A stretch of 64,000 nucleotides of DNA from Candidatus Nealsonbacteria bacterium (GCA_003551425.1 PUMP01000059.1:1-64000); one strand, 5' to 3'. Numbered from the stretch's first letter, positions 3,526 through 42,285 are shown. Program-made: numbers and translations. The notes: generated by a model not told the origin, from the sequence alone.

Positions 3526-3528
3526 TAT

Positions 3529-5022: not shown

Positions 5023-5380
5023 CTTTTAAGGCTCCTTCTATTGCGTTCTTCTCCTCGCGAGAAAGGGAATACTCCGATACTCCTCCCTTTACCGGTTTTG
5101 CATAAACTCTATTTCCTCCGCTGGAGTAAAGGCTTGTGATAACCGCTCCGTTGCCACTGCTGTCCAAGACAGCTACAGAGAAACTTTGATTACCGCCCGA
5201 ATCGGAAAAAGGATTGAATCTTACCACCTTTACGTTCTGCAAAAAAGTCTCTCCTCTCTTGCAGATTTCATCCAATTTTCCTTTTATCTCTGCATTTTCT
5301 TTCTCCAACTCCTCAATCTTTTCTGCAAGCTGATTGATGTTTTCGGGAGTTTCTTTTTTCTTTTTTTTAAGATTAAACAT
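5003..5380 (-). CDS. Hypothetical protein with an N-terminal coiled coil plus 'RFNPF.DSGGNQSF' region, DUF4446-like
   Basis: The ORF overlaps the infB start by 20 nt. Motif 'RFNPFSDSGGNQSFSVAVLD..GNG.VITSLY...NRVYAKP' recalls DUF4446, recalled from memory only. Confidence 0.4.
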   Translation of the reverse strand: MFNLKKKKKETPENINQLAEKIEELEKENAEIKGKLDEICKRGETFLQNVKVVRFNPFSDSGGNQSFSVAVLDSSGNGAVITSLYSSGGNRVYAKPVKGGVSEYSLSREEKNAIEGALKDEEQHE

Positions 5381-5396
5381 ATTAGCAACTGTTAAG

Positions 5397-5483
5397 CGGA
5401 GGGGGTGGGATTCGAACCCACGTGCCCTTTAAGAGCCAATCGCTTTCGAGGCGACGCCGTTATGTCCGCTTCGGTACCCCTCC
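5397..5483 (-). tRNA. tRNA-Ser (CGA), with a long variable arm
   Basis: On the reverse complement: acceptor ggagggg/cccctcc, anticodon stem gtcgc/gcgat with loop ctCGAaa, a long variable arm, T-arm gtggg-ttcgaat-cccac. Confidence 0.8.
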
Positions 5484-5498
5484 ACGGCAAAAATAAAG

Positions 5499-5572
5499 TG
5501 GACCCGATCGGACTTGAACCGATGGCCTTTTGCGTGCCACGCAAACGCTCTAGCCAGCTGAGCTACGGGCCC
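5499..5572 (-). tRNA. tRNA-Ala (GGC)
   Basis: On the reverse complement: acceptor gggcccg/cgggtcc with a G3-U70 wobble (the Ala identity element), D-arm tagctcagctggctagagc, anticodon stem tttgc/gcaaa with loop gtGGCac. Confidence 0.8.
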
Positions 5573-14408: not shown

Positions 14409-14585
14409 ATTTTATAACTTATTATTAATATTAAATTTGTTAATAACTTATTTTTTGAACTTAAATAGCGTGGGGAATTGTTTGGGAAAAAATATTAAAA
14501 GAAGGGTTTAAAAGATAGGGGATAATTTAAAGAAAAAAATAACGGTTAATTATAAACACTTTTTTCAATAACTTTTCCACAACTT
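14409..14585. promoter_or_regulatory. AT-rich dnaA-dnaN intergenic region with DnaA-box-like 9-mers (candidate oriC segment / DUE)
   Basis: Very AT-rich. It contains 'ttttccacaac' (TTTTCCACA) and 'gataggggataat', which are DnaA-box-like. Confidence 0.4.
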
Positions 14586-15929: not shown

Positions 15930-16114
15930 AGTTGTTTTAAAAATTAAAGTAAATTCAACTGAATGGATTATAACATAATTAAAATAGTGTGGAAAACTCT
16001 TTTTATTTGTTAAAATCTTAATAAGTTGTGGAAAATGTGGGGATAAGTTAATCAACTGTTAAAATTGACTTTTTCTTTTGTTTAAAGTAAAATACAAAAG
16101 TAAAATCTTAAATT
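15930..16114. promoter_or_regulatory. Candidate oriC / dnaA promoter region carrying a cluster of DnaA boxes
   Basis: Between the dnaA start and rpmH there is 'tgtggaaaa' twice plus 'tgtggggataa' (TTATCCCCACA on the other strand). It lies in the conserved rpmH-dnaA position. Confidence 0.5.
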
Positions 16115-16249
16115 ATGTCATTTTTCAACAACCCTAAAAACAGAAAAAGGAAGAGAGCACACGGCTTTCTCAGTAGAATTAAGTCAAGGACCGGAAAAGC
16201 CGTTGTTAAAAGAAGAATAAGAAAGAGGAGAAACAGTATAACTGTTTAA
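16115..16249 (+). CDS. rpmH: 50S ribosomal protein L34 (44 aa, below the ORF-track length cutoff)
   Basis: The translation MSFFNNPKNRKRKRAHGFLSRIKSRTGKAVVKRRIRKRRNSITV matches the bL34 consensus. It is immediately upstream of rnpA. Confidence 0.85.
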   Translation: MSFFNNPKNRKRKRAHGFLSRIKSRTGKAVVKRRIRKRRNSITV

Positions 16250-16252
16250 TTA

Positions 16253-17309: not shown

Positions 17310-17748
17310 AGAAGAAATGAAAAAGATTATTTTTGAGTTCTTCCGTCTCATTGATCCCGATATAAGGGTGGATTTTCCTGCTTCTGAAGAGAATACGATT
17401 AATGTCTGTGTAAAAATAAAAGATCCCGAGTCTTTGATAGGAGAAAAAGGAAGAACCCTGGTTGAGACGGAGAGATTATTCAAGATTATAGCAAGAAAGA
17501 AGAGCAAGGACCCTCTTTTTGTAAACCTTGATATTAACGATTATAAGAAGAGAAAAGGAGACCAATTAAAAGAGCTTGCAAACAGTACGGCAGACGAAGT
17601 CTCTCTTACCGGGATAGGAAAAAAATTTCCTCCCATGTCTGCTTACGAAAGGAGGATTATTCATATGGCGCTTGCGGAGAGAGAAGACGTGCTAACAGAG
17701 AGCGTAGATGAAGGTTCTCAGAGAAGAGTTGTTATCAAAAAGAGCTAG
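17293..17748 (+). CDS. Jag/KhpB-like RNA-binding protein (KH + R3H domains)
   Basis: R3H motif 'YERRIIHMALAEREDVLTESVDEGSQRRVVI'. It follows yidC as in the rnpA-yidC-jag operon. Confidence 0.75.
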   Translation: MKNMHKEEMKKIIFEFFRLIDPDIRVDFPASEENTINVCVKIKDPESLIGEKGRTLVETERLFKIIARKKSKDPLFVNLDINDYKKRKGDQLKELANSTADEVSLTGIGKKFPPMSAYERRIIHMALAEREDVLTESVDEGSQRRVVIKKS

Positions 17749-19562
17749 TCTTGCAGATCTTTTCCTTTCTCCTCTTTTATCCTTTCCAGTTCTTCCGGAG
17801 AAGATGTTATAATCTGGTCTTCCGTGTAAGATGCATTAATCTCGATAACCACCCTCTTTTGGCCGGCAAAAAAGATACCTTCTCCTATCTGTCCCTCTAA
17901 GAGAACAAATTTTTCTTCATCTGTGAGACTGAAAGTCTTTTGAACTTTGTCAATTACCGCGGATGACTGTTTAAGAAGTATTTTTAAAGCAGAGTTAGTG
18001 ACGATCGGCTTACCGTATTCGGACTTCATAAAGTCGGCGACATCTTGGGTTATGGTCGTAACCCCTAGCCAGTATTTCCTTGACCTTTTGACAAGGCCAA
18101 AGAGGAAAGACGCTCCGTCTTCGGTTTGCATCATCCACCAAGCTTCATCTACCACAAGGATACGTTTTTTTGTTGCGGAAGTCACTGCTTTCCATATGTA
18201 ACGCATGATAATGAACATTGCCATAGTTCTAAGCTCTTCCTCCAAATTTCTTATTCCAAAGACAGAAAGATTTCCTTCAAGCTTGACATTGGAGTATTGG
18301 TTGAAGAACTTTGCGTAAGTTCCTCTTGAAAACTTTCGAAGACGAAGAATAAGTGATCTTGTTCCTTCCATTGACTCTAAAACCTCTTCCAGGTCAGAAA
18401 AGAGAGGTACTTTTTCCTCCCAAGTATCGGGATCACTGTCTGCCGTTATGTCTTTTGCGGCGTAAGTTGCAATAATTGCTTGATCTATAATTGCGTCTTC
18501 TTCAGGAGTTAATCCCCCAAGCATAATCCTCAAGAGACCAACAAGATTAATCGTATTTGTCCTTAAAACCTCCTCTGCCGTTTCTCCTTCCTTGGGAACG
18601 GGGATATCAAAGGGATTTATGTGATTATCTGATCCGAGAGAGATATCGTAGAAAGAGCCTCCGGCTGCTTCAGCCAATGTTTTATATTCATTTTCCGGAT
18701 CAATAACAATTGCCTCTGTTCCCGTCATGAGCGACCTTAAAAGGGCTAACTTTACAAGATACGATTTTCCTGACCCCGCTGTGCCGAAGACTACTTCGTT
18801 GGGATTTTCAAGATCAAAACGGTCAAAAAGTACAAGAGAGTTGTTGTGCTTATTGATTCCGTATAAGATGCCGTCATTAGAGCTGAGCTCGGAAGAGATA
18901 AAGGGGAATATACTGGAAAGAGGCTCCGTGTTCATGGGGCTGTGAGTCTGAAGAACATCTCTTCCGTACGGAGAGGTGCTGATAAAGCCACTCTTTTGCT
19001 GGAAAAGCGCGGACTTGAGATAAACTACTTTAGATTCCAGAATTGATCTTAAGACAGTTTCCGTGTCTTCCAGGTCTTTTTCAGTCTCTCCATAGATGGT
19101 GATATAAAATCCAAACTGAAACATTCTTTCTTGCGCTGATTGAAGCCTGTTTCGCAAGTCTTCCAGGTCTTGGTGGGCTGTTTCTAGTGCAGGGTCACGA
19201 ACCATGCCCTTATCTTCATTCTCCATTATCTCTGCCTGTACTTCGGTAAGCTTCTTTCTTAGTTTTTTAAGGACTTGTGTTGTATCTACGGCGTGGATGA
19301 AGAACGCTATATCCATCGGAGCATTTAAGTTAATAATTGAAATTAGCCAGCCGCTTGTTAAATAGTGAGGATAAGAGAAAACGAAGAAAGAGCGAGAAGT
19401 CTTTTCTCCTATCTTAAGCTCTCCCTGTTTTTCTTCTATAAAAGAAGGAGCGATAATATCTTTTATCTCAAAGAAATCATCCTCCTCTTCTTCAGTAGAA
19501 GATTTCTTTTGGGGAATGTCGAGCCCAAACATCTTTTTAAAGTTTTCTATAAAGTTTGACAT
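17745..19562 (-). CDS. VirB4/TrbE/CagE-family type IV secretion ATPase (ATPase moiety; C-terminal ~600 aa of a split VirB4)
   Basis: Walker A 'GTAGSGKSYLVK', Walker B 'RILVVDEAWWMM' and a C-terminal 'GVTTITQDVADF' helicase-like motif. The overall organisation matches Gram-positive VirB4 (PrgJ/TcpF-like). Confidence 0.75.
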   Translation of the reverse strand: MSNFIENFKKMFGLDIPQKKSSTEEEEDDFFEIKDIIAPSFIEEKQGELKIGEKTSRSFFVFSYPHYLTSGWLISIINLNAPMDIAFFIHAVDTTQVLKKLRKKLTEVQAEIMENEDKGMVRDPALETAHQDLEDLRNRLQSAQERMFQFGFYITIYGETEKDLEDTETVLRSILESKVVYLKSALFQQKSGFISTSPYGRDVLQTHSPMNTEPLSSIFPFISSELSSNDGILYGINKHNNSLVLFDRFDLENPNEVVFGTAGSGKSYLVKLALLRSLMTGTEAIVIDPENEYKTLAEAAGGSFYDISLGSDNHINPFDIPVPKEGETAEEVLRTNTINLVGLLRIMLGGLTPEEDAIIDQAIIATYAAKDITADSDPDTWEEKVPLFSDLEEVLESMEGTRSLILRLRKFSRGTYAKFFNQYSNVKLEGNLSVFGIRNLEEELRTMAMFIIMRYIWKAVTSATKKRILVVDEAWWMMQTEDGASFLFGLVKRSRKYWLGVTTITQDVADFMKSEYGKPIVTNSALKILLKQSSAVIDKVQKTFSLTDEEKFVLLEGQIGEGIFFAGQKRVVIEINASYTEDQIITSSPEELERIKEEKGKDLQD

Positions 19563-19563
19563 T

Positions 19564-20193
19564 TTACATAATAAGTTCTTCCGGTATTTCCGGGAAGTAC
19601 CCCTTTTCCGCTTGTTTTGGATGGTGCATGCTCCAAAGCAACTCTATGAGCTCGGAAGAAGTAAGCGGAACGGAGTGAAGGCTGCACCTGCGAAGCCCCA
19701 AAGCCACAAACTCCATTCTTTGGTATAACTGATCTCTTGATCTTTTAAAAACTTCTTCGGAAAGAGTTCCTTTGCGTGATGCTACAACGTCACGGGTTGA
19801 AGTCTTTGTTTCACCGACACTGTAAGGGACAACAACGAAGAAATTCTTGCTATAGACATCTTCTTTTCTTACAAACTCTTCCAAAAAGTCTATATATCCC
19901 GCTGTTTGGTGCCGTAAAAGATCATTAGTCTGTTCTTTCTTGAGCTCTTTAATTTTATCTATATATCCTCTGATATTGGTTCTCCTGGACTGAACCACAA
20001 TTTGTAAATAAAAATCCAAAGAGTTTAAAAAGGCTTGGAAGTGATAGATGATTGCCTTTTGCTCTTCTTCGGACTTTAAGACGAAGTTTATCGATGAAAT
20101 CATTAAGATTCCCCGTAACTGATTGTTTTTTAGAACAATCAACCCTTCTCTTATTTGCTTTATTTCAAGTAACTCTTGTGTGCTTAAAGGCAT
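19564..20193 (-). CDS. Probable N-terminal domain of VirB4 encoded as a separate ORF (stop TAA, 1 nt, then ATG of the ATPase ORF)
   Basis: Its 209 aa plus the 605 aa of the next ORF equal the ~800 aa of a full VirB4. 'INFVLKSEEEQKAIIYHFQAFLNSLDFYLQIVVQSRR' resembles the CagE_TrbE_VirB N-terminal region. The junction reads ATTATGTAAAATGTCA. Confidence 0.4.
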   Translation of the reverse strand: MPLSTQELLEIKQIREGLIVLKNNQLRGILMISSINFVLKSEEEQKAIIYHFQAFLNSLDFYLQIVVQSRRTNIRGYIDKIKELKKEQTNDLLRHQTAGYIDFLEEFVRKEDVYSKNFFVVVPYSVGETKTSTRDVVASRKGTLSEEVFKRSRDQLYQRMEFVALGLRRCSLHSVPLTSSELIELLWSMHHPKQAEKGYFPEIPEELIM

Positions 20194-20195
20194 AT

Positions 20196-20621
20196 TTAAA
20201 ATGTTTCAATACGTGAGCTCACCTTGCCGAGCCTACTGCCTTTTTTTAATTTTTTCTCTTCCTCCCTTTCTTCTGTTTTTTTCTTCTTTGGGAGAGACCT
20301 CTTCTTTCTTTCTGTAGATATTTTAACCGGTTTTTCTTTTTTTTCCCATACATACTCTTTTGAAGCTGTAGAGAAAGCAATATAGTTTTTAATGTAGTTA
20401 GAAAGAGGCATTTCGTTAATTTTTAAAAAAGCCAAAGCGACTCCTCCTGTAGCCACAAAGGCGGAAATGAAAAAGAAAAGGAGCAAACTTACTTCTCTTA
20501 ATATAAGATAAAGGAAAAAGATAATAAAAGCCGCGATTCCAAGCGGGATAATTTGTTGGAAAGTAGCAGGGCCCACTATTTTTGCCTCATGCTCAATATT
20601 CCTTGGCACTTTATATCTCAT
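20196..20621 (-). CDS. Small two-TM membrane protein, VirB3/PrgI-like T4SS component
   Basis: 141 aa with two adjacent TM helices after an N-terminal 'KVPRNIEHEAKIVGPATFQQ'. It sits immediately upstream of VirB4 as VirB3 does, and has a lysine-rich C-terminal tail. Confidence 0.4.
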   Translation of the reverse strand: MRYKVPRNIEHEAKIVGPATFQQIIPLGIAAFIIFFLYLILREVSLLLFFFISAFVATGGVALAFLKINEMPLSNYIKNYIAFSTASKEYVWEKKEKPVKISTERKKRSLPKKKKTEEREEEKKLKKGSRLGKVSSRIETF

Positions 20622-20749
20622 ATGATCATTTTAGCACAAAGGTAATCCAAGTAAAGAGGGAGGGTGAAGCTTGACAAATCTGCCATTTCATGATAGAAAA
20701 AAAGCGGAGTATGCACACTACAAAATTGTTATATAAGGAGGTTTTTAAA

Positions 20750-21991
20750 ATGATATGGTGGATTCTTTTTGTACTGTTGTTGGTAGGAATCTTTCTCCTC
20801 TCTTTCTATTCTCTCCGGTATTCTTTTGGAAAGGTGGAAGAAGGGACGACCAGGGTTATTATGAGCCTTGGGCAGTTTGATAACATCAAAATGGTCTGGA
20901 GGGGCCATTTTATGGATGAAGACTTTAACATTCTAAGAGAAGAAGAGGACGATGGAAGAAGAAGAAAAAAGATATCTGGTCGAATTTTTGGCGGATTCTT
21001 CTTTATGGGGCTTTATCCTTTTAAGAAGATCCATAGCTATTCTATTACGTGGAGTAGTAGCCATGGTCGAAAAGAAGGAAAAGCTGGGATAAGTGAAGAA
21101 TTCAAGAAGATAAACCTCAAGCCCGAGGTTTATAGGTCGCTGGTAGAGAACGCTGAGACAAAAGAAAGGGTGCAATGCAAGGTTGAATACCTTGTGACTC
21201 TCAGAATTAATAATCCCTACAGATTTTTATTCGTTAGCCCTGATAACTCCCTAGAAGAAGCGTTGTCCCAAATAGATACACTGATACGTGACCTGGTTGG
21301 AAGTTATTCCTTTGAGAAGCTGTATACGCTTGAAAGACAGAAGATTTGGGAAAAAGTAAAAGACAGGAAGCTGTTACGAGTGTCCCAGCAAGATCCGGGG
21401 ACGCTTCAAAAGTGGGGAATAGGAGTAGCGAAAGAGGGGATTACCTTTATAGAGGTCTCCCCCATGGACAAGAGAATTACCGAAGCTCTTGCAGAGGAGC
21501 AAAAAGAAGACTTCGAGGCGAAAGGAGCCTCGAAAAGGATAGCAAAGAAAGTAGTATATATGATGGCAGAAGGTGCTGGCAAGACTCCTAAGCAAATCGC
21601 AAGAGATATAGAAAGCGATGCCGAGACGAGAAATAAGTTCTTTTCTTGGTGTCAAGAAATGGTAAGGAAAGATCTTGCCATGAGATCCGGTAGTTATATT
21701 AATGTTGACGTGGAAAGTGGAGGCGAGCTGGAGAAAACAATTCTTAATACAATTGCGGGCTTTCTGAGAATGCCACAGGGTCCGCAAGGAAAAGGAAATG
21801 AGCAAGGAGGCGTAGAAAAAGAAGAGAAGAAAAAGCCTAAGAATGATGTCGATGCAGACGAAGATGAAATAGATGAAGAAGAGCAAGAAAACGAAGAAAG
21901 CAACAAAGAAGAAGAGGGCTCCGAGGTTTCATACAGCCCGGAACTTATGAAAAGAAATAGAGAGAGAATACTAAAAGAACAGGGCCGTTAA
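20750..21991 (+). CDS. SPFH/band-7 (stomatin/prohibitin-like) membrane protein with an acidic C-terminal tail. The start was set at the ATG preceded by GGAGG.
   Basis: N-terminal TM 'IWWILFVLLLVGIFLL'. 'GTTRVIMSLGQF', 'KVEYLVTLRINNPYRF' and 'WGIGVAKEGITFIEVSPMDKRITEALAEEQKE' fit the SPFH fold pattern. A D/E-rich tail follows. Confidence 0.5.
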   Translation: MIWWILFVLLLVGIFLLSFYSLRYSFGKVEEGTTRVIMSLGQFDNIKMVWRGHFMDEDFNILREEEDDGRRRKKISGRIFGGFFFMGLYPFKKIHSYSITWSSSHGRKEGKAGISEEFKKINLKPEVYRSLVENAETKERVQCKVEYLVTLRINNPYRFLFVSPDNSLEEALSQIDTLIRDLVGSYSFEKLYTLERQKIWEKVKDRKLLRVSQQDPGTLQKWGIGVAKEGITFIEVSPMDKRITEALAEEQKEDFEAKGASKRIAKKVVYMMAEGAGKTPKQIARDIESDAETRNKFFSWCQEMVRKDLAMRSGSYINVDVESGGELEKTILNTIAGFLRMPQGPQGKGNEQGGVEKEEKKKPKNDVDADEDEIDEEEQENEESNKEEEGSEVSYSPELMKRNRERILKEQGR

Positions 21992-22016
21992 CCCCTTATA
22001 ACAATTCAACTTTAAA

Positions 22017-22044
22017 GGCCGACAATCACTGTCGGTCTTCTTCA
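22017..22044. terminator. Hairpin ccgaca-atcac-tgtcgg followed by a T-rich tract, a candidate bidirectional terminator
   Basis: A perfect inverted repeat lies between the convergent SPFH gene and the 22059-22469 gene. Confidence 0.5.
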
Positions 22045-22058
22045 TGGACAAGAAAGAG

Positions 22059-22469
22059 TTAAGTTATGGGCTCTCTGTAAGGATCGCTACTCCTTTTCTC
22101 TGTTGCTTTCTTCCTCTTAGGGAGAGACTTTTTCTTTTCTTTAACATGAGGAGAGGAGATGTGCGGCAATACTTTTGAGCTTAACGTTCTTTTAATTTTT
22201 CGCGCTCTTTCTTCACTTACTTCTAACTTCTTAACAAAATAAGAAACCATATCTTCTTTCTTTAACTTTCCATGAGCGTAATCGGATACGGCTTTAGAAA
22301 TAATTCCTCCGGGAGAAGAAGCCATTATTTTCTTTCTTTCTTCTTTCTCTTCGCACTTAACCCATTTTTGAAAAGACTTGTCTTGCTTAGACTTTAATTT
22401 CTTGCTTTTTTCAACAATCTCTTTAATTATTTCTGCGACGTTTTGAGGATAAGTTATTTTTTCACTCAT
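22059..22469 (-). CDS. Hypothetical small basic protein (K-rich, 136 aa) within the T4SS-like locus
   Basis: Reasonable ORF in an operon-like array, with no recognisable motifs. Confidence 0.4.
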   Translation of the reverse strand: MSEKITYPQNVAEIIKEIVEKSKKLKSKQDKSFQKWVKCEEKEERKKIMASSPGGIISKAVSDYAHGKLKKEDMVSYFVKKLEVSEERARKIKRTLSSKVLPHISSPHVKEKKKSLPKRKKATEKRSSDPYREPIT

Positions 22470-22479
22470 ATGAAATTAA

Positions 22480-24699
22480 TTAATCATCTCTTAGTTCTTC
22501 AGCTTCTATATATGCAGGATGAGCTGTGATAATGTTAAAGTTATGTCTTCTTTGCCTGCGTGCCTCTTCGGGGAAGTCATTAAATGTTTCTATAAGATTC
22601 CTTAATCCCTTATAATTATATTCTGCTACTGCTTGGATGCTGCGAGAATTCTGAGTAAGAGCGTCAGCAACGGCTTCGTTTCTGTAAGCGGAAGGAATCA
22701 TGTTTCTTTGTTCTCCGGGGCTCATATTTAGCACCAGATTAACATCATCTCTGTATCGATCGTCTAATCGCCTTTCCAGTTCTGTTTGAATTATTCTGTT
22801 TCTTTCCTCTTCAGATTGCCCTTGCCTCTTCGGGGTTTCTCGCGCAACATCTTCCCAGGTAGGTTGTTCTTCTGCGTGCGGGGCTATTTTTTTGTATTGA
22901 CTTATTTGATTATTTACATTTCTTAGTGCGTTTGCTTGGCTTCTTTGCCTTCTATTCATCTCTCTTTGAATTCTATCATTGTAATCGGCATTTGATTCTC
23001 CTGTATTTTGTGGAAAATCTCCTTGTACCGCTCCCCTGGTGATGTTTTCTTGAGATGCTTCAACTTCCCTTCTTTTCCTTTGTAATTTCTCTATTTCGTC
23101 TCCAATAGCTAATCTAGCTGCATTCTCTTGATATTTATCACCGGTATCAGCAATTTTTTTCAAATCACCAGCCTTTCCCCCGGCCCTTCTTATTTGATCC
23201 GGTCTTTGGAACTCTGACGGGGTTTTCTTTGCCTCTTCTTCGGCTTCACTTTTTCTTCTTTTTGCCCACCTGGCAAGAGATGGTGCTGCTAATTTTGCTA
23301 TCGGCATCTTTCTCATTCGTTCCGCCATGTTTTCTACACCTTCCGGCACATTGGCTCTTTCTTGTGATCCCTTAGGAACAAAGCTATGCTTGAAAGCTCG
23401 TCCTGCAGTTCCGCTAATTGAAGCACCAAATGTTTTGGCCTGGCTTATTGCGGCATCTACTCCTGCCGGTATAAACTTCTTTCCGAAAAAGAGAATTGTA
23501 ATGAAGTAAATTAAAAGAATGACGTAATAAACAATCCCGCTATCCAGGAAGATTCGTGATATGCCAACAACCCACCCTGTCTCTCCTAGCTCTGCTTCTC
23601 TAATAGAGCCTTCAAGAACATCCACCATTCCTACCATATTAAATCCCAAGATAAGCAGAAAGGCGAAAACGATACCAGCAAAGAGCCACTGCAAAAGGCT
23701 TCTTAGCCATAACTCAAAATAGCCGTAGATCTTTGTGCCGGGAAAAATCAAACAGATGAAGGCAAGAGGAGCAATAACCGCAAGTATTTGTATGATAAAG
23801 ATTCTTACAACGAAAATCACAAAGAAGAGAAAGAAAGCGCCGGCAAGAAGCATGTTTATCAGTCCCTGAACAAACATTGATAATATCTCACCAAACCAGA
23901 TGAATCCGGCTGCTATAACCGCAAATTGCACCGCTACGGATAAATAAGGGATTAGCATTGCTAAGGAAAATACCCCTAGAGCAACCGCAAATCCAATTAT
24001 TTGTTCTGTTGTACCGGTAAAAAGCGTGTCCATTGATGCAGTAACAAGGTTTGTTGCTTCTTGGGGACCGTCTCTTTCACAGCAACACGGTTCTTCTCCT
24101 TCGCAGAATTGGGGATCTCCAGGGACTGTCCCTGACGGGCACACGCCTTCTCCCGGATAAAATTCTATATGTGTACAATCGGGCTCTATTACAAGTTGCT
24201 CTGAAATAGTGCTAAAGAAAACATTTGAGACATCAATTCCCATTCCTACAAAAACCAAAGAGAAGTTTATAAGCAAGGCGACGCCGATTAGCCTGGGGAA
24301 TGCTTTCTTAAGCCCAAGATTGTCAAACTTTAATATGATAGAGATAGCGATAATAACAAACGCTATGATAAGCAGCATATTAGAGATACCGAGAACAAAC
24401 TCCCATCCTACCTCTATAATTCGATGATCCAAGGTAAGCACCTCCGGTGTGGCTGTAATAATTGACACCAAGTATTCGGTAGCCATCTTTAAGAGCCCGA
24501 AAGAGAGAATTAAAAACAAGAACAAAAATATTGCCAGAGCCAGAATTGGTCCCACTGCTTCAGATAGCCCTTCAAGCTGTTTGTGCCCAAGGTCAAAGAC
24601 AAAGCCATCCGTTATTTTTGGCAATAAAAGAAATAATAGAAAAATAAAGGCAGAAGAGAGCAGCTTTAGCTTTGACTTATATTTTTCCTTTAAAAACAT
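22480..24699 (-). CDS. Polytopic membrane protein, VirB6/TrbL-like, with a Cys-rich extracytoplasmic insert and a long charged C-terminal extension
   Basis: About 10 predicted TM helices in the first 420 aa, a Cys cluster 'GEGVCPSGTVPGDPQFCEGEEPCCCERDG', and a ~300 aa hydrophilic R/E/Q-rich tail. This architecture is typical of VirB6/TrbL/PrgH-like mating-channel proteins. Confidence 0.45.
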   Translation of the reverse strand: MFLKEKYKSKLKLLSSAFIFLLFLLLPKITDGFVFDLGHKQLEGLSEAVGPILALAIFLFLFLILSFGLLKMATEYLVSIITATPEVLTLDHRIIEVGWEFVLGISNMLLIIAFVIIAISIILKFDNLGLKKAFPRLIGVALLINFSLVFVGMGIDVSNVFFSTISEQLVIEPDCTHIEFYPGEGVCPSGTVPGDPQFCEGEEPCCCERDGPQEATNLVTASMDTLFTGTTEQIIGFAVALGVFSLAMLIPYLSVAVQFAVIAAGFIWFGEILSMFVQGLINMLLAGAFFLFFVIFVVRIFIIQILAVIAPLAFICLIFPGTKIYGYFELWLRSLLQWLFAGIVFAFLLILGFNMVGMVDVLEGSIREAELGETGWVVGISRIFLDSGIVYYVILLIYFITILFFGKKFIPAGVDAAISQAKTFGASISGTAGRAFKHSFVPKGSQERANVPEGVENMAERMRKMPIAKLAAPSLARWAKRRKSEAEEEAKKTPSEFQRPDQIRRAGGKAGDLKKIADTGDKYQENAARLAIGDEIEKLQRKRREVEASQENITRGAVQGDFPQNTGESNADYNDRIQREMNRRQRSQANALRNVNNQISQYKKIAPHAEEQPTWEDVARETPKRQGQSEEERNRIIQTELERRLDDRYRDDVNLVLNMSPGEQRNMIPSAYRNEAVADALTQNSRSIQAVAEYNYKGLRNLIETFNDFPEEARRQRRHNFNIITAHPAYIEAEELRDD

Positions 24700-24721
24700 T
24701 TATCTTTAATTATTCTTTATT

Positions 24722-26173
24722 TTATTCCCACCAACCTTCTTCGCATGAATATAGTCCCCACAAACCTTCCCAGCAGACATTAATTGTTACATCTTCGGTC
24801 ATTTCAATGTTAGGGATATATCCATCGTTAATAGCGGGATCTCCTTCTTTTGACCATTCGAAAGTTGTTCCCCACCATTCGGAGCCAACCTCATGAAGTG
24901 CTACAATATTACGGTGTTCCGGAATCTCTGTGCGGCATCTATTTCTAGCTTCCACGAACCCGCAATCAATGTACCCATGATGAGGGGGGCGGTGCTTTGT
25001 CTCTATTCTCATAATGTCAAGCTCGATACCCCAGTCATCTTCATCTGCTTCTCCAATATGGCCCCGATAAGGGTTAATGGTCAGAGTAAATGTCTCTATG
25101 CCGTCGGGAAGATCCAGTGGTCCGGAGTAGCACCGATTAGGAGAGCTGTCTCTGCAATAGGTGCGAGAAATCTCTACGGCACCTTCCTCCGGGTCTGTTG
25201 TTCCTATTGCCTCTCTTTCTTGTCTTCTTTCAATCTCCATGCAATCTATTGATCTTCCAAATCCGAAAATTCCTTCCTCCAGATCAACCGTAGGTATTGA
25301 GCCGCGGCTTAATTTTTCACCACAAGCGACTTCTGGAGCTCCAATCTCCCACCAGTTTGCTGTTGCTTCATAAAGATCGGCTATGGAAGTTCCTCCTTCT
25401 TTATATAAGCCCCTGGGGTCCGGTCTCATTTTCTCACCGGGACCAAACCTTTCCGCCTGATGGCTGCCAATTCCTATTATATCTCCTCCTTGCCCCATTG
25501 TTTGTTCTATTTCTACCGGAGGACTATATCTCTGATACCCAAGAGATATGCCGTCTTCTAGTTGTTTCATTTCATCCGGCGGTATTGCCGTATATCCCTT
25601 TACCGATTTTGGAGAATGATCTTCGTGTATTTCATCGGCTTCTAGTTGTATGTTGTATATATCCTTGTTTCTTATATAAACCGTGGCAATGTGATCTTCA
25701 TGGTTTTTCTTGGCGTAAAACTCCATAATATCAACGGGTTCTCCTTCAAGGTCTGCGAGACTTAGATCGGAAATATAGACTTCGTCATGAATGCTAAAAG
25801 TTACGGGAGAGATTCTTACCAGTTCGGGGTTTATCATGCTTAATATTACCCAAGAAGATAAAAGCAATACTAGCCCTATTACTGCGGACTGGATTCTTGA
25901 CAAAGCATCTTGCATCACGGCGGGCTTTCCGGCAGAGATTGTGTATTGAAATCCGGAGAATACCAGGATGCCAAATACCAGCAATATGCCGATAATAATT
26001 CCCCACTCGTAAAAGTATGCGATAAGTTCGTGAAGTGGCATATCGCGCCGGAACTCTATGGTGGGAGAGTCTGGCCAAGCAACTTCCGTATTGGCAATAG
26101 CCACGGAGAAAGACGCAAAAAATAAAAAGAGAGAAGAAAAAAGCGTTTTTAAATTAAGTATTTCTTTTTTCAT
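24722..26173 (-). CDS. Secreted/membrane protein with an N-terminal signal peptide plus a two-helix pilin-like module, followed by a ~380 aa Cys/His/Trp-rich extracellular domain
   Basis: The signal peptide is followed by 'HELIAYFYEWGIIIGILLVFGILVFSGFQY...AVIGLVLLLSSWVILSMINP'. This two-helix module is similar to the C-terminal modules of the 26874-29972 and 41710-42222 proteins. Confidence 0.5.
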   Translation of the reverse strand: MKKEILNLKTLFSSLFLFFASFSVAIANTEVAWPDSPTIEFRRDMPLHELIAYFYEWGIIIGILLVFGILVFSGFQYTISAGKPAVMQDALSRIQSAVIGLVLLLSSWVILSMINPELVRISPVTFSIHDEVYISDLSLADLEGEPVDIMEFYAKKNHEDHIATVYIRNKDIYNIQLEADEIHEDHSPKSVKGYTAIPPDEMKQLEDGISLGYQRYSPPVEIEQTMGQGGDIIGIGSHQAERFGPGEKMRPDPRGLYKEGGTSIADLYEATANWWEIGAPEVACGEKLSRGSIPTVDLEEGIFGFGRSIDCMEIERRQEREAIGTTDPEEGAVEISRTYCRDSSPNRCYSGPLDLPDGIETFTLTINPYRGHIGEADEDDWGIELDIMRIETKHRPPHHGYIDCGFVEARNRCRTEIPEHRNIVALHEVGSEWWGTTFEWSKEGDPAINDGYIPNIEMTEDVTINVCWEGLWGLYSCEEGWWE

Positions 26174-26865
26174 GCTTCGTTTTCTGTTTTAATCTCTATG
26201 GAATCCATTATATGGTTTACTTGTTCAGAAAAATCTTCCCAAAGACTGGAGATTATGAAAACGGAAACCATGTATCTTTCGTTATCAATATGTATTATTT
26301 GTTCTTTTGCTCGAACCTCTCCTATCGGGCTTTTATACTTTGTTTTAAATATTTTTCCATGTTTTGTTTCTTCTTCTTCCAAAATCTCACGGGAAGTATC
26401 TTTCACAAAAATATCTTCCGTTTTTTTCAATAAATCACCTTCTTCCGCACCATCTTCTCTTAAAACAGTCATTCCCGCCTTTGCCTCAAAAGGCCCTACA
26501 AGAAAAGAGGTAAAAAGGATTTCAATGTTCTCCTGATCCAAGTCTTCTATATCTTCTACAGATTCCCAGTGCGAAGGGTATGCTACTCTTATTTTGTCAT
26601 TTGGCCCTGTAAATTCTTCATATTCTATCTCTTCGGCGCTTTTTAGTTCTTCGTTATTTAGGCTTCGATATTCATCCAGATAATCTCCGCTAATAATGTC
26701 TTCCATGGAAGGAAGAGAATATTCCGAAGTGGCTATTTCTCTTTCCGGAAACCTGGGGTGAGTAACGCCCTCTTTATTCCCGGTTTGCTGGCTGTGAAAA
26801 TAGGTAGAAAGAACCAGGAAAGCTATCATCAAGAAGCTTATTATAACTATTTTTTTATCCGACAT
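26170..26865 (-). CDS. Hypothetical N-terminally membrane-anchored acidic protein
   Basis: N-terminal TM 'IVIISFLMIAFLVLSTYF'. It is co-directional and overlaps its neighbours by 4 nt. Confidence 0.4.
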   Translation of the reverse strand: MSDKKIVIISFLMIAFLVLSTYFHSQQTGNKEGVTHPRFPEREIATSEYSLPSMEDIISGDYLDEYRSLNNEELKSAEEIEYEEFTGPNDKIRVAYPSHWESVEDIEDLDQENIEILFTSFLVGPFEAKAGMTVLREDGAEEGDLLKKTEDIFVKDTSREILEEEETKHGKIFKTKYKSPIGEVRAKEQIIHIDNERYMVSVFIISSLWEDFSEQVNHIMDSIEIKTENEA

Positions 26866-26873
26866 TTTTATGA

Positions 26874-29800
26874 TTATAATTCAATTTGCCACCAAAATCC
26901 ATATATGCTTGTATCATATCCTATCATAGGCATTCCCATTGTTAAAATAAGCCATCCGAAGAAAAGGATGACAAATCCGATTCCTACCGCTCTCCAAACA
27001 GCCTTTACTCTTGCCAAGACCTCTGTTCCCAAGGAAGGAGAAAGGTAAAATATTGCCCCTGTTGCCAGTATCATTAATCCAATAGCGACGGGAAAGAGGT
27101 TCCAAAGAACAAAATCGATTAATACTTTAAATAATATCAATAAATGCTTGGGCTGGCAAGATTCTCTTTCATTCCAGTCGGTATCCGGGCTGTTATATGT
27201 CCTGCCACAAGGAACAAGGCCGACGCCGTCAACCTCTACTTCGTAGTAATTGAAAGACCACCAGGGAGAAAAGTCTCCGCTTTCTTCGCACTCGCTGTCA
27301 AGGCAAGATTTTACTCTCCACTCATAATCTCCCAGGTCAAATAACCTTAAAAAGAAATTATTATCGGAGATAATCTCTTTTTCTTTCTCTCCGTCGGGAA
27401 AAATAACTTCGTATTTATAATAATTTGCTCCCCTAATAGCGTTCCAAGAAACATCGATATTTCTTTCTTCGGTAAAAATCTCGGCGTTATCTTGAGGGCT
27501 GGGGACAGAAGGAGCGTAAAGAGTAAAGGTGGTGAACTCTACCGGAGGAGTAAAGAATCCTCCGCAATAATCGGTGCCCGGATCGGCACAAGTTTCCACT
27601 GTCCAAGAATAAGATTCTTCTGTTTTAATTTTCGGATAGTCAAGACGGATCCTTGTCGTTGAAGTATGACTTCTTTTTATCTTATCTCCTTCTTTGTTAA
27701 ATAACTCGAATACATAGGATTTTGCCCCCGAAACAGCTCCCCACTCTGCGTTAAGGGGAATTAAAACTTCTTGGGCTTTGTTATAAGGAGTTGCGGTTTT
27801 ATTTAAGTCGGGAGGACGTCCGGTAGTGGTAAATTTATGCCAATCCGTCCAAGTGTCGTTACAATCGTCTCCGTTTTCGTCGTAGCAAGACCTGAGCCGC
27901 CACCTGTAATCTGTGTTAAGAGCAAAGTCATCTATGTCTATCCTGGTATTGGTATCTTGAAGGTGTCTTTCTATTGTTCCTCCTTCTCCGTCCATTCTTT
28001 CCAGCTGAAAATAATAGGAGTGAGCACCAAATGGCTTGTTCCACTCAAAATAAGCGCTGGGATGAATGGCGATAGGATTTCTCCCCTCTGGATCGTTAAG
28101 AGGAGAGAGTCCGGAGGGGTTCTCAAGACCCCCGGAAACAATAAACTTCCATATTTGACCATAATCGGTGCAGTCTTTTCTGGAGTGGTCTTTACAAGCG
28201 GCGATTTGCCATCCGTATATCTCTCCTTTTTCATCGAATAGTCCGACATTTTTATTAATTAATTTTGTAGGAGGGTCTCCTCTATGGATAGGAACAAGAC
28301 TAGGATCGTGAATGGGGACAGGTTCGCAAAGACCTCCCAAGCGAACACGGTCGGGATGACACTCCAGTTCACCGCCTATTTCTTTATAGGCATAAAGCAA
28401 ATAAGCCTTATAATCTTCCTCTCTTTCATGGTCACACCAAGTTGGGTTTGCGTCTTTAAAGTCTATAGGGTTATGATGAGTCCCCGCCATACTTTCCGGA
28501 TCTACCCATCCGGAATCATAAGGGGAAAGCGGTTCGGGAGCCTCGTTGGTTTGAAATCCCGGCCAACTGCTCCACTTTCCGCAGTCTGTACCATCAGTGC
28601 TACAACAAGCCTGTACTTTCCAGTTATGGGTGTCGCCGGGCCTAAGAAGGCAGCGGTCTGCATTGAAGTTATTACGGGAAACCGTGGTTTCAAGAGCTTT
28701 CCCCGAAGAGCTTGAGGTTAGCTTATAGGAAGAGCCTGCTATCTTTTCACTATTATCTTTGTTTAAGGCAGCTAAATCTATCCTTGAATCGGAAGGAGAT
28801 TTCTCTAGAAGAAGATCGTTTTCGTAAGGATCTTCCATTTCGCCGTTATAGAGATCTTCTGGAGGAGTCTCTTTATCTGATACATATTTTGGCACATAGC
28901 CTGGAACATAATAAGTTGCTCTCCCCATGTTGCTATGATTCCTAATATAATTAATAGTTTCTGCAAAGACTAGCTGATTACGATCAAGATATTTAAGAGG
29001 ATCGTCATGTCCACGATCAACACCACCGCTCCAGCAAGAACCCAAACAAACATCAAGATGCAAATGAACTCCAGTAGAGGCTCCGGTAGTTCCCATTCTT
29101 CCGATTTGTTGTCCTTGCTCTACTTTATCGCCTGGACTAACGAACATACTATGGAGATGAAGATACTGCGTATATAGATTATCTCCACTGCCCGTTATAT
29201 CACCGTGATTGATTCTTACAGTATTTCCCGCGCCTCTTCCAGGGGTACCGATATATCTTGCTATAGTTACTTTACCTTCTGCTGCTGCATATATAGGTGG
29301 ATTAGTAAATCCTGATTGAACAAAGTCAGTCCCAAGATGAAAATGGCCAACATCCATGTCCCAGCCACTGCGATCTTGGGCAAAATTAGAAGTAACTCTT
29401 ATATTTTTTAATTCTAATGGCCAAGCAAGAAGTCCTTCTTCCGGAGCAGGAGGAGGGTCGCCAATAGGCTGAGAGGGGTCGTCGGGATCGGGATGAAGAA
29501 AATCTCTGGTGGTATTGTCTATCTTTATGTTATAAGAGCTTGGTCCCGTATCTTCATTCCATCCTGAGACATTGTCCCAAGCAAGAGCTACGGGAAGATA
29601 TATGTCATCATTTCCTTCATAAGGATAATCGGACTGAAGAATTGTTGTTGCTGGATTGGCGTAATACTCTTCGTTTTGCGGAGCATCTAAACACTCACCG
29701 GCACAGGAGCAATCATTTTTTGTAGCATCACACTTTTCCCAAGAGTTGCAATTTTCTTTAGTTACCCAACGAGTATTACCGCATCCATCTTCTTGCTGTC

Positions 29801-29972
29801 TCTGCAATGTTCCTCCGCAGCTACCAACACAGCGCGTGTTATTGGTATTACTCCAGCTGGGCTCACACTCTTCGGCATTAGCCAAGTTTATCCCCAAAGC
29901 AAGGAAGGCGGTTATTATTAAAAAAAGAGAAAATAATAAGAGAGTTTTTATGTTGGCTGGCTTAAATGACAT
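26874..29972 (-). CDS. Large secreted M23-family (LytM-type) peptidoglycan metallopeptidase. Architecture: Cys-rich N-terminus, M23 domain, three Fn3-like repeats, and a C-terminal two-helix pilin-like membrane module.
   Basis: Signal peptide present. M23 motifs 'HLGTDF', 'GKV...GNTVRINHGD....YTQYLHLHS..V..GDKVEQGQQIGRMGTTGASTGVHLHLDV'. Three ~90 aa repeats (YYFQLE...YRWRLRSCYDENGDDC; YVFELF...YSWTVETCADPGTDYC; YKYEVI...YEWRVKSCLDSECEES). The C-terminal 'VGLVPCGRTYNSPDTDWNERESCQ...' plus two TM helices is shared with the 41710-42222 protein. Confidence 0.7.
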   Translation of the reverse strand: MSFKPANIKTLLLFSLFLIITAFLALGINLANAEECEPSWSNTNNTRCVGSCGGTLQRQQEDGCGNTRWVTKENCNSWEKCDATKNDCSCAGECLDAPQNEEYYANPATTILQSDYPYEGNDDIYLPVALAWDNVSGWNEDTGPSSYNIKIDNTTRDFLHPDPDDPSQPIGDPPPAPEEGLLAWPLELKNIRVTSNFAQDRSGWDMDVGHFHLGTDFVQSGFTNPPIYAAAEGKVTIARYIGTPGRGAGNTVRINHGDITGSGDNLYTQYLHLHSMFVSPGDKVEQGQQIGRMGTTGASTGVHLHLDVCLGSCWSGGVDRGHDDPLKYLDRNQLVFAETINYIRNHSNMGRATYYVPGYVPKYVSDKETPPEDLYNGEMEDPYENDLLLEKSPSDSRIDLAALNKDNSEKIAGSSYKLTSSSSGKALETTVSRNNFNADRCLLRPGDTHNWKVQACCSTDGTDCGKWSSWPGFQTNEAPEPLSPYDSGWVDPESMAGTHHNPIDFKDANPTWCDHEREEDYKAYLLYAYKEIGGELECHPDRVRLGGLCEPVPIHDPSLVPIHRGDPPTKLINKNVGLFDEKGEIYGWQIAACKDHSRKDCTDYGQIWKFIVSGGLENPSGLSPLNDPEGRNPIAIHPSAYFEWNKPFGAHSYYFQLERMDGEGGTIERHLQDTNTRIDIDDFALNTDYRWRLRSCYDENGDDCNDTWTDWHKFTTTGRPPDLNKTATPYNKAQEVLIPLNAEWGAVSGAKSYVFELFNKEGDKIKRSHTSTTRIRLDYPKIKTEESYSWTVETCADPGTDYCGGFFTPPVEFTTFTLYAPSVPSPQDNAEIFTEERNIDVSWNAIRGANYYKYEVIFPDGEKEKEIISDNNFFLRLFDLGDYEWRVKSCLDSECEESGDFSPWWSFNYYEVEVDGVGLVPCGRTYNSPDTDWNERESCQPKHLLILFKVLIDFVLWNLFPVAIGLMILATGAIFYLSPSLGTEVLARVKAVWRAVGIGFVILFFGWLILTMGMPMIGYDTSIYGFWWQIEL

Positions 29973-30890: not shown

Positions 30891-31892
30891 TTGAAGAGGA
30901 GGGCTTCGGGTCAAAGTGGCTTTACGATTCCAAAAAGGAGAAATAAAATTTTCCTTGTTTTTGTTTTATCTTTATTTATAGCTGCTTGCCTTACAAATAC
31001 GGAAGATTTCTTTGGCAAAGAAGAACCCAAAGAGGAAAGCTTTGTATCGGACTTTGATTTTTTTCTTTCCTCCGAAAGAGAAGATAGCTCCGAATCAATT
31101 ATATTTACCGACAAGAACACCCTTCTCTCCGGGTCGGCTCCTTACTTTGTGAGCTCGAGGGTGATGGGGGGCGCCGGAGTAAGCCAAAGAAACAATATTA
31201 TTTCTTATAAGGTGGAGGAGGGGGATACTCTTTCAAGTGTTGCCGATAAGTTTGATATTAGCAAAGACACGATACGGTGGGCTAATGACATAAACGGCCA
31301 AGTAAAACCCGGAGAAGAGTTGGTTATTCTTCCCGTAACGGGAGTTATGTATTATGTAGAGTCCGGAGATACTTTATCGGAGGTTGCCGAAATGCATAAA
31401 GCGGAAAGAGAAGAGATAAAGGAGTTCAATAATCTATATGTAGAGGACATTTATCCCGGTGACTTGATAATTATTCCGGGAGGGGAGCGTCCCGCTATTC
31501 CTGAACCTGCGCCTCCGGCACCTTCTACGCAGTTCGTTGCTCCCGCAATAGGGATTGTTACTCAAGGGCCACACCACTATAATGCGATAGACATTGCTAA
31601 TAATTGTGGTAGCCCTATCTATGCGGTACAATCGGGGGTAGTAGTGGAAAGAGCCTATAACACTTGGCCGGCAGGTCACTTCTTAAAAATTGATCATGGA
31701 AATGTGGTGGCAATGTATGCCCACATGCAAAATATGTATGTTGGAGTAGGCGACAGAGTCCATCAAGGACAGCAAGTTGGAACGATGGGGACTACAGGAC
31801 TTTCAACCGGTTGTCATATTCACTTTGATATTCTTTCAAGAAGAATAAGGAATCCTTTTGCTCACATTCCGGTTGGAGGACAGGTAAGATAA
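30891..31892 (+). CDS. Membrane-anchored LysM(x2)-M23 peptidase
   Basis: N-terminal TM. Two LysM motifs ('YKVEEGDTLSSVADKF', 'YYVESGDTLSEVAEMH'). M23 motifs 'HYNAIDIA...GSPIYAVQSGVV' and 'MYAHMQN..V.VGDRVHQGQQVGTMGTTGLSTGCHIHFDI'. Confidence 0.8.
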   Translation: MKRRASGQSGFTIPKRRNKIFLVFVLSLFIAACLTNTEDFFGKEEPKEESFVSDFDFFLSSEREDSSESIIFTDKNTLLSGSAPYFVSSRVMGGAGVSQRNNIISYKVEEGDTLSSVADKFDISKDTIRWANDINGQVKPGEELVILPVTGVMYYVESGDTLSEVAEMHKAEREEIKEFNNLYVEDIYPGDLIIIPGGERPAIPEPAPPAPSTQFVAPAIGIVTQGPHHYNAIDIANNCGSPIYAVQSGVVVERAYNTWPAGHFLKIDHGNVVAMYAHMQNMYVGVGDRVHQGQQVGTMGTTGLSTGCHIHFDILSRRIRNPFAHIPVGGQVR

Positions 31893-41592: not shown

Positions 41593-41619
41593 ATTTTTAA
41601 GATTAATTTATCTCTCTAG

Positions 41620-41692
<73 letters not shown>

Positions 41693-41709
41693 AAATCAAA
41701 CAAAGCAGC

Positions 41710-42222
41710 TTAATCTTCTTCTATCGTACAATCTATTTTATAAATCCCCTCATCCCACCAGTCTTCAAACCCCCAGCTGTCTTCTTCCGTCATTCCCATA
41801 CCTTCAAGAATAAGCCCTACTGTGACCCATGCGGTGTAAGCGATAAGAACGCCGGCGATAGCTACAAGGATAACAGTTCTTCCTTTTTTATATCCCTCGG
41901 GATTGGCAGAGTTCGTATAAAGCGTGATTCCACCGAAGATTATAAGGATAATGGCGGCTGCGGGAATCATTCTTGTCATAAAGAAATCGACTACATTGCC
42001 GAAAATTACAAACAAGTGGCATAACTGACAGTCCGGCAAATGATCTTCGGGTCCGCAAGGAACAAGCCCGACACTGACATCATAACATGTACTGTCATGC
42101 CAATGATATCCTGCCTCTTCACACTCTTCTTTGGTGTTAAGGCCCTCAACCTCGTAATTTGCCAAGGCAAGAAGGGGAAGAGCCATGAAAAGAAGAACAA
42201 CTATCAATATCCTTTTTAGCAT
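41710..42222 (-). CDS. Small secreted Cys-rich protein with the same C-terminal two-helix pilin-like membrane module found in the M23 giant protein
   Basis: Signal peptide 'MLKRILIVVLLFMALPLLALA'. 'VGLVPCGPEDHLPDCQLCHLFVIFGNVVDFFMTRMIPAAAIILIIFGGITLY...ILVAIAGVLIAYTAWVTVGLILEGMGM' aligns with the C-terminus of the 26874-29972 protein (VGLVPCG identical, with conserved C, H and helix spacing). Confidence 0.55.
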   Translation of the reverse strand: MLKRILIVVLLFMALPLLALANYEVEGLNTKEECEEAGYHWHDSTCYDVSVGLVPCGPEDHLPDCQLCHLFVIFGNVVDFFMTRMIPAAAIILIIFGGITLYTNSANPEGYKKGRTVILVAIAGVLIAYTAWVTVGLILEGMGMTEEDSWGFEDWWDEGIYKIDCTIEED

Positions 42223-42285
42223 TTGGTAATTATAATCTTTTTTAACAAAAAATCAAAGGGCGCTTTTTCTAAAGGCTTAACTTTG

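Follow-up and report, generated by a model that had tools for sequence, protein, structure and literature searches.

What kind of machine is encoded by a compact array of secretion genes that sits among the housekeeping genes of a Candidatus Nealsonbacteria-like Paceibacteria genome, and what would such a machine do for its owner? The array occupies positions 17745-29972 of the 64-kb stretch of DNA analyzed here (hereafter the window), and the original prediction had described it as a minimal Gram-positive-type type IV secretion system (T4SS) or pilus apparatus, as opposed to a classical conjugation module, embedded in the housekeeping genes of a bacterium from the candidate phyla radiation (CPR). 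Profile searches, fold comparison and synteny bear out this description. It is very probable that the locus is the chromosomal, origin-proximal T4SS characteristic of Patescibacteria, here in a member of the Paceibacteria, and that it descends from conjugation machinery of the MPF_FATA type and is no longer a conjugation module.

Each of the nine open reading frames (ORFs) that had been listed is present at the predicted position and on the predicted strand (Table 1). They are tightly packed, with eight on the minus strand, and form two gene groups. The first begins within the 3' end of ksgA, which the start of the 1032-aa ORF overlaps by 11 nt, and continues with the 231-aa, 483-aa, 739-aa and 136-aa ORFs at spacings of -4 to 22 nt. 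The second consists of the prgI-like, trsD-like and virB4 genes, spaced by 1-2 nt. Between the two groups lies a 433-aa plus-strand ORF, divergent from prgI (68 bp apart) and convergent with the 136-aa ORF.

Table 1. Predicted proteins of the secretion locus, and one pilin-type protein encoded outside it, with the basis of each description.
Protein	Length (aa)	Position	Strand	Basis
VirB4-family ATPase, monoderm MPF_FATA type	605	17745..19562	-	NF045971, 4ag5, Walker motifs
TrsD-like protein	209	19564..20193	-	NF041427, N-terminal VirB4 model match
PrgI-family VirB3-like protein, two transmembrane segments, lysine-rich tail	141	20196..20621	-	Pfam PF12666
SPFH/Band-7 membrane-anchored protein	433	20690..21991	+	Pfam Band_7
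Basic (isoelectric point 10), lysine-rich, soluble protein	136	22059..22469	-	directly downstream of VirB6-like gene
Extended VirB6-like polytopic membrane protein	739	22480..24699	-	fold comparison
Pilin-module protein, signal peptide, two-helix module at ~45-120	483	24722..26173	-	PF18895
Acidic (isoelectric point 4.5), N-terminally membrane-anchored protein, PsbP/Mog1/DUF1795-like ectodomain	231	26170..26865	-	profile and fold
Secreted multidomain M23-pilin fusion	1032	26874..29972	-	Pfam M23, pilin hidden Markov model, repeat motif
Small VirB2-like pilin candidate, outside the flagged region	170	41710..42222	-	signal peptide, Cys-rich stretch, GLVPCG motif, two helices

The VirB4 ATPase, its partners and their setting

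With 351.9 bits, the 605-aa ATPase clears the 325-bit cut-off of NF045971, the model for 'VirB4-like conjugal transfer ATPase, CD1110 family', and it also matches Pfam P-loop_TraG (E 1.4e-24) and TrwK/VirB4 (E 9e-7). Its nearest solved structure is the C-terminal domain of Thermoanaerobacter VirB4 (4ag5, E 4e-40), and its nucleotide-binding motifs are intact (Walker A, GTAGSGKS, at residue 260; Walker B, ILVVDE, at residue 468). The predicted VirB4 identity therefore holds. A FtsK/HerA-type identity was considered and rejected, as the 36-bit DUF87/HerA match reflects generic P-loop similarity and the VirB4 model is passed. A scan of one genome per species returned 542 VirB4 relatives. Among the best 80 of these, which were used for the synteny work, almost all come from metagenome-assembled genomes of Patescibacteria. 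Candidatus Nealsonbacteria supply the closest (86%, then 70-74% identity), and Paceibacterota, Staskawiczbacteria and Minisyncoccales come next.

The 209-aa ORF next to it matches the TrsD/TraD model NF041427 beneath that model's cut-off (E 6.7e-10) and aligns to positions 5-99 of the CD1110 VirB4 model, that is, to its extreme N-terminus. The stop codon of trsD stands one base from the start codon of virB4, and the pair had originally been read as a VirB4 protein split into N- and C-terminal ORFs. Such a split would suit a decaying, non-functional system in which a frameshift broke virB4 and the remaining genes are drifting, since the two proteins jointly cover NF045971 (positions 5-99 and 185-733) and are encoded in different frames. 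Against this, trsD and virB4 are adjacent, separate ORFs in all 74 loci in which the pair was compared and fused in none, and their lengths are stable, at about 200-230 aa for TrsD and about 590-620 aa for VirB4. Moreover, TrsD is a recognized separate component of pGO1-type systems that is represented by 2,272 Patescibacteria proteins and is essential in Southlakia (PMC12102498), and the catalytic motifs of the window's VirB4 are intact. The 'split' therefore represents the standard TrsD-VirB4 pair, an old arrangement that has been conserved, and not damage; we regard decay of the system as the least credible explanation of the locus.

The proteins that would accompany these two in the membrane were also recovered. 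Directly upstream of trsD, here and in 71-73 related loci, lies a gene whose product matches PF12666 (PrgI; 43 bits against a gathering score of 27) and carries its hydrophobic segments within residues 18-69, as expected of the two-pass VirB3-like protein that had been proposed. The 739-aa protein, predicted to be a VirB6-like protein with some ten membrane passes, has about 8-10 hydrophobic helices, an extracytoplasmic loop with seven cysteines (residues 170-215) and a charged C-terminal tail of 300 aa, and it is the VirB6-like polytopic membrane protein of the locus. A profile of its family found only chance coiled-coil and ATP-synthase-b matches among PDB sequences, and the link to VirB6 therefore required fold comparison.

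The original prediction had left gene order across CPR genomes to be compared. When window proteins were placed by tblastn onto 81 related Paceibacteria loci (among which L001 represents the window's own sequence in a second assembly), the order proved conserved: ksgA, the VirB6-like gene, in some loci the SPFH gene, prgI, trsD, virB4, in some loci pilin-module genes, then jag, yidC, rnpA, dnaA and dnaN. Over these 81 loci, trsD was found in 77, prgI in 71, the VirB6-like gene in 44-48 and dnaA in 51; pilin modules were counted over 82 sequences, 61 of which hold pilin-module proteins. In the window, the flank on the virB4 side comprises dnaN, dnaA, rnpA, yidC and jag, the last converging on virB4 such that the two 3' ends overlap, and the opposite flank comprises ksgA, a LysM-M23 protein, a DksA/TraR-type protein and PNPase. 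These housekeeping flanks, dnaA and dnaN included, place the locus beside the presumptive replication origin. The dnaA region also has the lowest GC content of the window (0.31 over 14001-16000), and the gap of ~200 bp between the end of dnaA at 16055 and the start of rnpA at 16253 (in the 14001-16250 region) is a plausible oriC site.

This setting bears on whether the array might be the remnant or cargo of an integrative and conjugative element (ICE) or plasmid that has lost its relaxase and coupling protein. The best VirB4 model does come from a Clostridioides conjugative transposon family (CD1110/CTn2), and the set of components resembles that of Gram-positive conjugation systems. Nonetheless, dozens of genomes with VirB4 proteins of only 56-86% identity share the order anchored by ksgA and jag-yidC-rnpA-dnaA-dnaN; there is no integrase, no repeat and no flanking tRNA, the nearest tRNA genes lying at 5.5 kb and 41.6 kb; the GC content of the locus (0.39-0.44) is no different from that of its flanks, and all of its genes are intact. 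In addition, a published VirB4 tree places the whole phylum in one clade with almost no transfer between classes (PMC12102498). An ICE or plasmid remnant is thus highly improbable, and we grade conjugation, ICE remnant and pseudogenization together as very unlikely.

Consistent with this grading, profile searches of the window's ORFs of at least 297 aa found no relaxase, coupling-protein or integrase domain. The prediction that relaxase and VirD4 are lacking accordingly stands for the window; it does not extend to the genome, as a survey of the phylum finds VirD4-like proteins elsewhere in most genomes (PMC12102498). The window likewise holds no VirB1-type lytic transglycosylase (SLT) and no CHAP hydrolase, its sole hydrolase domains being the M23 domains of the 1032-aa protein and of a second peptidase at 30891-31892.

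VirB8, too, goes undetected in surveys of the phylum, and the 231-aa protein, as a bitopic protein, was therefore tested as a candidate for it. Its family was reached by exhaustive HMMER search (38 remote homologs, against just 3 matches in a word-indexed database). Pfam PsbP is matched by 10 of 40 family members and PsbP_2 by 3 of 40. An AlphaFold2 model of the protein (predicted local distance difference test score 81) finds PsbP as its best Foldseek match (2xb3, E 5e-8, template modeling score 0.70), with further matches to Tsi3, EagT6/SciW, DcrB and LpqN. We therefore reject it as the missing NTF2-like VirB8. The membrane anchor and the acidity (isoelectric point 4.5) that the original prediction had noted are as described, and its account of the protein is amended by the PsbP-like fold. 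In 9 further related genomes the gene sits at the corresponding place.

Pilin-type modules and the proteins that carry them

Two proteins of the locus had been predicted to be pilin-like, and both carry a two-helix module of this type. The 483-aa protein matches PF18895 (T4SS_pilin) at residues 50-113 (28.6 bits against a gathering score of 26.6) and, with E 3.5e-38, a pilin-module hidden Markov model (HMM) that we seeded with the window's modules and iterated over the 82 sequences; its hydrophobic pair spans residues 49-82 and 92-119. The remainder of the protein, a C-terminal domain of 360 aa, is acidic, contains 8 Cys and 10 Trp, in line with the Cys/Trp-rich character attributed to it, and differs between relatives: among the 49 loci giving a match, 47 conserve residues ~1-130 only.

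The 1032-aa protein is, as predicted, a secreted M23 peptidase with a pilin-like anchor. It begins with a hydrophobic signal or anchor segment and a Cys-rich stretch, continues with the peptidase (residues 186-320) and five repeats, and ends in a two-helix module (~910-1029). The peptidase domain is well supported (Peptidase_M23, E 3.4e-21; PDB M23 matches down to E 5.7e-13) and retains its zinc-binding motifs, HxxxD (HLGTD at 212) and HxH (HLH at 303). The repeats, of ~100 aa each, end in YxWxVxxC...C...W..F, with the motif at 449, 586, 689, 788 and 883; they are backed by this regular-expression motif only, and self-BLAST of the protein returned no repeats. At the C-terminus, the module HMM matches residues 910-1029 (E 1.2e-14) over a hydrophobic pair at 943-982 and 991-1019, and the last ~150 residues are homologous to the 170-aa ORF (BLASTP E 1e-13), with a weaker match (E 1e-3) to the module that the 483-aa protein carries.

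That 170-aa ORF stands alone between tRNA-Lys (41619-41692) and tRNA-Arg (42285-42359), 12 kb from the T4SS locus. Its PF18895 match falls under the gathering score (18.3 bits, E 0.0025) and its match to the module HMM is at E 1.6e-15. It is the only short pilin-type ORF of the window and the best candidate there for a short, polymerizable pilin.

Across the 82 sequences, the HMM identified 134 module-bearing ORFs in 61 sequences. The module is N-terminal and followed by a long extension in 114 of them and C-terminal in 11; only 8 of the 134 are 200 aa or shorter, half of which are cut by contig ends. Between relatives, the module is conserved and the extension is not. Seven ORFs from six distinct genomes combine the module with an M23 domain, in two domain orders. 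The peptidase is N-terminal to the module in the window and in L002, and the reverse order occurs in Nealsonbacteria and Staskawiczbacteria (L003 11851-13636, L028 12289-13905, L029 4006-5715 and L046 5445-9089). Fusion in opposite orders implies that the link between enzyme and pilin module arose at least twice. As to how rare the 1032-aa architecture is, a word-indexed homolog search returned matches to the M23 domain only and missed the 47%-identical ortholog in L002, and such a search is therefore a weak guide.

How the apparatus may work

The published record supplies a context for these genes. In the saccharibacterium Southlakia epibionticum, epibiotic growth requires a T4SS gene cluster (SEML1_0006-0019) with predicted pilins and no recognizable coupling or relaxase proteins (Wang et al. 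2023, Cell, PMC10633639). Reasoning by analogy with homologs of known role in Gram-negative systems and with the genetics of Saccharibacteria, we lean, with confidence only a little above even, towards the following mechanism. VirB3 and VirB6 would form a membrane platform on which TrsD and VirB4 dock, and ATP-driven extraction of two-helix modules from the membrane would then build a pilus or stalk. The M23 domain would cut peptidoglycan cross-links, filling the role of VirB1 on the cell's own wall, on that of the host or on both, and the large variable domains carried by pilin modules would be presented outside the cell for host recognition. The resulting structure would act at the interface between epibiont and host, in contact and in the transfer of macromolecules in one direction or the other, and the apparatus would not be used for plasmid or ICE transfer.

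Several considerations weigh against this reading. The homology of PF18895 to VirB2 is unconfirmed by sequence against solved pilins and rests on Pfam curation and published structure-based annotation: no pilin was among the PDB matches, at E up to 10, of a profile built from 28 modules, and TrbC (PF04956) appeared only at E 7.8. The module proteins of the locus, at 483 and 1032 aa, are not of the size of small mature pilins (about 70-130 aa), and most module proteins of the related sequences are likewise far larger than T4SS pilins known to polymerize, which makes pilus formation uncertain. No VirB8-like component was found at the locus, the fold of the sole bitopic candidate being PsbP-like. 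The lack of VirD4 and relaxase applies to the 64-kb window, and either could be encoded elsewhere in the genome. Finally, the functional role of the system, here and in all Paceibacteria, is a prediction from genes.

The distribution of modules suggests that the hairpin may serve to display or anchor enzymes and adhesins. Taken further, the two-helix module of Paceibacteria might be not mainly a pilin but a portable tag by which the T4SS extracts varied passengers from the membrane and displays them. A short stalk or pilus would then bear wall-cutting enzymes and host-specific adhesins on its surface or at its tip and would drill through the host envelope, and the PsbP-like protein would act either as a shield of the cell against the peptidase or as a chaperone for the hairpins. 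Fusion of the module to M23 in two architectures and to hypervariable Cys/Trp-rich domains fits this proposal, and the role suggested for the PsbP-like protein follows from its fold group, which includes the immunity protein Tsi3 and the Eag chaperones that bind transmembrane helices. We nevertheless hold the tag and the decorated stalk, taken jointly, to be a rather unlikely combination.

A different account of the large module proteins dispenses with the pilus altogether. If the apparatus exported effectors or toxins into the host, as do the antibacterial X-T4SS and the streptococcal 89K system, the module proteins would be anchored surface enzymes and adhesins. Most of them, at 300-1,400 aa, are implausible as a major pilin; the M23 domain might in its own right act as an effector against the host; and Wang et al. 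suggested that the Southlakia system may export proteins (PMC10633639). However, T4SSs known to translocate effectors nearly always need a coupling protein, of which there is none nearby, and apart from a speculative pairing of the M23 protein with the PsbP-like protein there are no obvious effector/immunity pairs. Moreover, tubular structures, possibly T4SS pili, have been seen between a cultivated parasite of the lineage and its host (bioRxiv 10.64898/2026.06.21.733656). Effector export without a pilus therefore seems to us improbable.

We judge no more favorably the idea of a DNA-uptake machine, in the manner of Helicobacter ComB or archaeal Ced, that imports host or environmental DNA or RNA for a nucleotide-dependent organism. 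As in ComB, no relaxase or coupling protein is encoded nearby, and VirB4 has a weak match to the CedB model NF041017 (E 1.2e-18). In the class ABY1 the T4SS adjoins comF, recG and radA (PMC12102498), and a 2026 preprint ties VirB4 and PNPase to feeding on host RNA in the lineage (bioRxiv 10.64898/2026.06.21.733656); the window's PNPase lies at 38735-40828, 9 kb from the locus. The CedB score, however, is 67.1 bits against a cut-off of 700, so the family model is not passed and the match amounts to generic VirB4 similarity, for which the CD1110 conjugation family is a far better fit. The locus has no DNA-binding or nuclease component. In Southlakia, deletion of comEC abolishes competence but not viability, and the T4SS is still essential (PMC12857230), from which it follows that competence-type DNA uptake is not the essential role of the system there. 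Import of DNA or RNA, export of effectors and pure adhesion are each possible in the sense that they are compatible with the locus, and the contact and transfer mechanism set out above is the one we prefer.

Accessory genes, neighbors and known systems

Together with the PsbP-like gene, two further genes make up the three conserved accessory genes of the locus. The 433-aa protein matches Band_7 (31.4 bits against a gathering score of 23.6); its gene had been taken for an insertion, but it is a conserved neighbor, kept in the same divergent position and orientation in 22 of the related sequences. The 136-aa basic protein matches no Pfam or NCBIfam family, and its homologs lie directly 3' of the VirB6-like gene in 6 related loci. 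In the 67-bp gap between these two convergent genes (21992-22058), a T-rich run comes after an inverted repeat, GCCGACA...TGTCGGT; this is a possible bidirectional terminator that the consensus scanner did not report. Counts from promoter and terminator consensus scans were not above those in shuffled sequence, and no operon boundaries are claimed from them.

Beyond ksgA, a second M23 peptidase (30891-31892, plus strand) has two LysM domains and is divergent from ksgA; the arrangement dksA, LysM-M23, ksgA recurs in about 27 related loci, which makes this peptidase a probable housekeeping protein and not part of the T4SS. Two adjacent giant minus-strand ORFs (33576-36455, 959 aa, and 36468-38726, 752 aa) encode near-pure Glu/Lys-rich predicted coiled coil with a recurring E(E/K)RWxxE(E/D)KRRxIEKExW, one of them ending in a long poly-Glu tail. 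Neither matches Pfam, and they account for the extreme purine skew of the stretch (AT skew to -0.58). Weak homologs of the 959-aa ORF lie between pnp and dksA also in L020, L022, L076 and L079. A 437-aa protein (32257-33570, minus strand), whose acidic N-terminal part is cytoplasmic and precedes a single central transmembrane helix and a C-terminal domain of ~270 aa, has no family match and adjoins the coiled-coil genes also in L020 and L079. Elsewhere in the window, a T2SSE-family (PilB/PilT-like) secretion ATPase (6080-7381, plus strand; Pfam E 3e-122) adjoins ruvB, a sign of a type IV pilus system encoded elsewhere in this part of the genome. A 311-aa ORF (44467-45402, plus strand) matches the Pfam Proteasome subunit family over residues 10-55 only (25.7 bits; gathering score 22.4), the remainder of the protein being unannotated. 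Sixteen tRNA genes cluster at 1079-5572 and 41619-47597, unusually dense for 64 kb, and RtcB and an ELP3-like radical-SAM/GNAT protein are encoded at 56750-58174 and 60033-61628, respectively.

Set beside known systems, the locus shares with Agrobacterium VirB and R388 Trw the TrwK homology of its VirB4, a VirB3-like protein and the two-helix pilin topology. It differs from them in having no VirB5, VirB7, VirB8, VirB9, VirB10, VirB11, VirD4 or outer-membrane complex and in the fusion of its pilin modules to large domains. With Helicobacter ComB and archaeal Ced it has in common a VirB4-based machine lacking both relaxase and coupling protein, and an owner that depends on imported nucleotides. 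Unlike those systems, it scores far below the CedB cut-off and has no ComB8, ComB9 or ComB10 and no identified CedA-type partners, and a link to competence is excluded as the essential role in Saccharibacteria (PMC12857230).

The likeness to Gram-positive MPF_FATA systems (pGO1/pIP501, pCF10 and Clostridioides difficile CTn2) extends to the CD1110 subtype of VirB4, to PrgI/VirB3-like and VirB6-like proteins and to a monoderm architecture that dispenses with VirB7, VirB9 and VirB10; the TrsD partner is shared with pGO1. By contrast with these systems, the locus has no relaxase, coupling protein, oriT context or VirB8-like PrgL/TraM, and its hydrolase is an M23 endopeptidase in place of an SLT or CHAP VirB1. 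It also carries VirB2-like modules, which Gram-positive systems do not have, and it lies on the chromosome beside the origin and is inherited vertically.

The closest counterpart is the T4SS of the Patescibacteria clade itself. In a survey of 3,035 Patescibacteria genomes, VirB4 was found in 2,417, forming one clade nested in MPF_FATA, with TrsD as its most frequent partner and with VirB3/PrgI, VirB6 and PF18895 VirB2-like pilins nearby; VirB8 was almost undetectable, relaxases and nearby coupling proteins were rare, and the neighbors of the T4SS in Paceibacteria and Microgenomatia were dnaA, dnaN, rnpA, ksgA and rpmH (Quiñonero-Coronel et al. 2025, Microb Genom, PMC12102498). A 2025 review treats them as new arrivals in the T4SS superfamily (PMC12857230). 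The locus agrees with this clade in its adjacent TrsD, PrgI/VirB3, VirB6 and PF18895 genes near virB4, in a peptidase that replaces classical VirB1, in the lack of a nearby relaxase or coupling protein and of a detectable VirB8, and, as in other Paceibacteria, in its position by dnaA, dnaN, rnpA and ksgA. The module family and gene set, thought at first to be poorly described, are in fact PF18895 and a system already treated in three papers (PMC10633639, PMC12102498, PMC12857230). The locus adds no new kind of system and is a standard, complete Paceibacteria example of the published phylum-wide T4SS, with the published component set and genomic context, and is of value as a well-annotated reference. 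Such systems matter because they occur in ~80% of genomes of a phylum that holds a large share of bacterial diversity and are essential in the one species tested. Where the locus departs from published accounts, it does so at the level of lineage only, in the C-terminal module on the M23 protein, the PsbP-like gene, the divergent SPFH gene and the basic gene after virB6, and in that most modules here anchor large, variable proteins. Published Patescibacteria T4SS papers, which count the modules as VirB2-like pilins, make no mention of the M23-module fusions or of the SPFH and PsbP-like genes. The modest novelty of the locus thus lies in detail, and the peptidase-pilin fusion, the large variable passengers borne by most modules and the conserved PsbP-like, SPFH and small basic genes are leads that surveys based on PF18895 counts do not contain.

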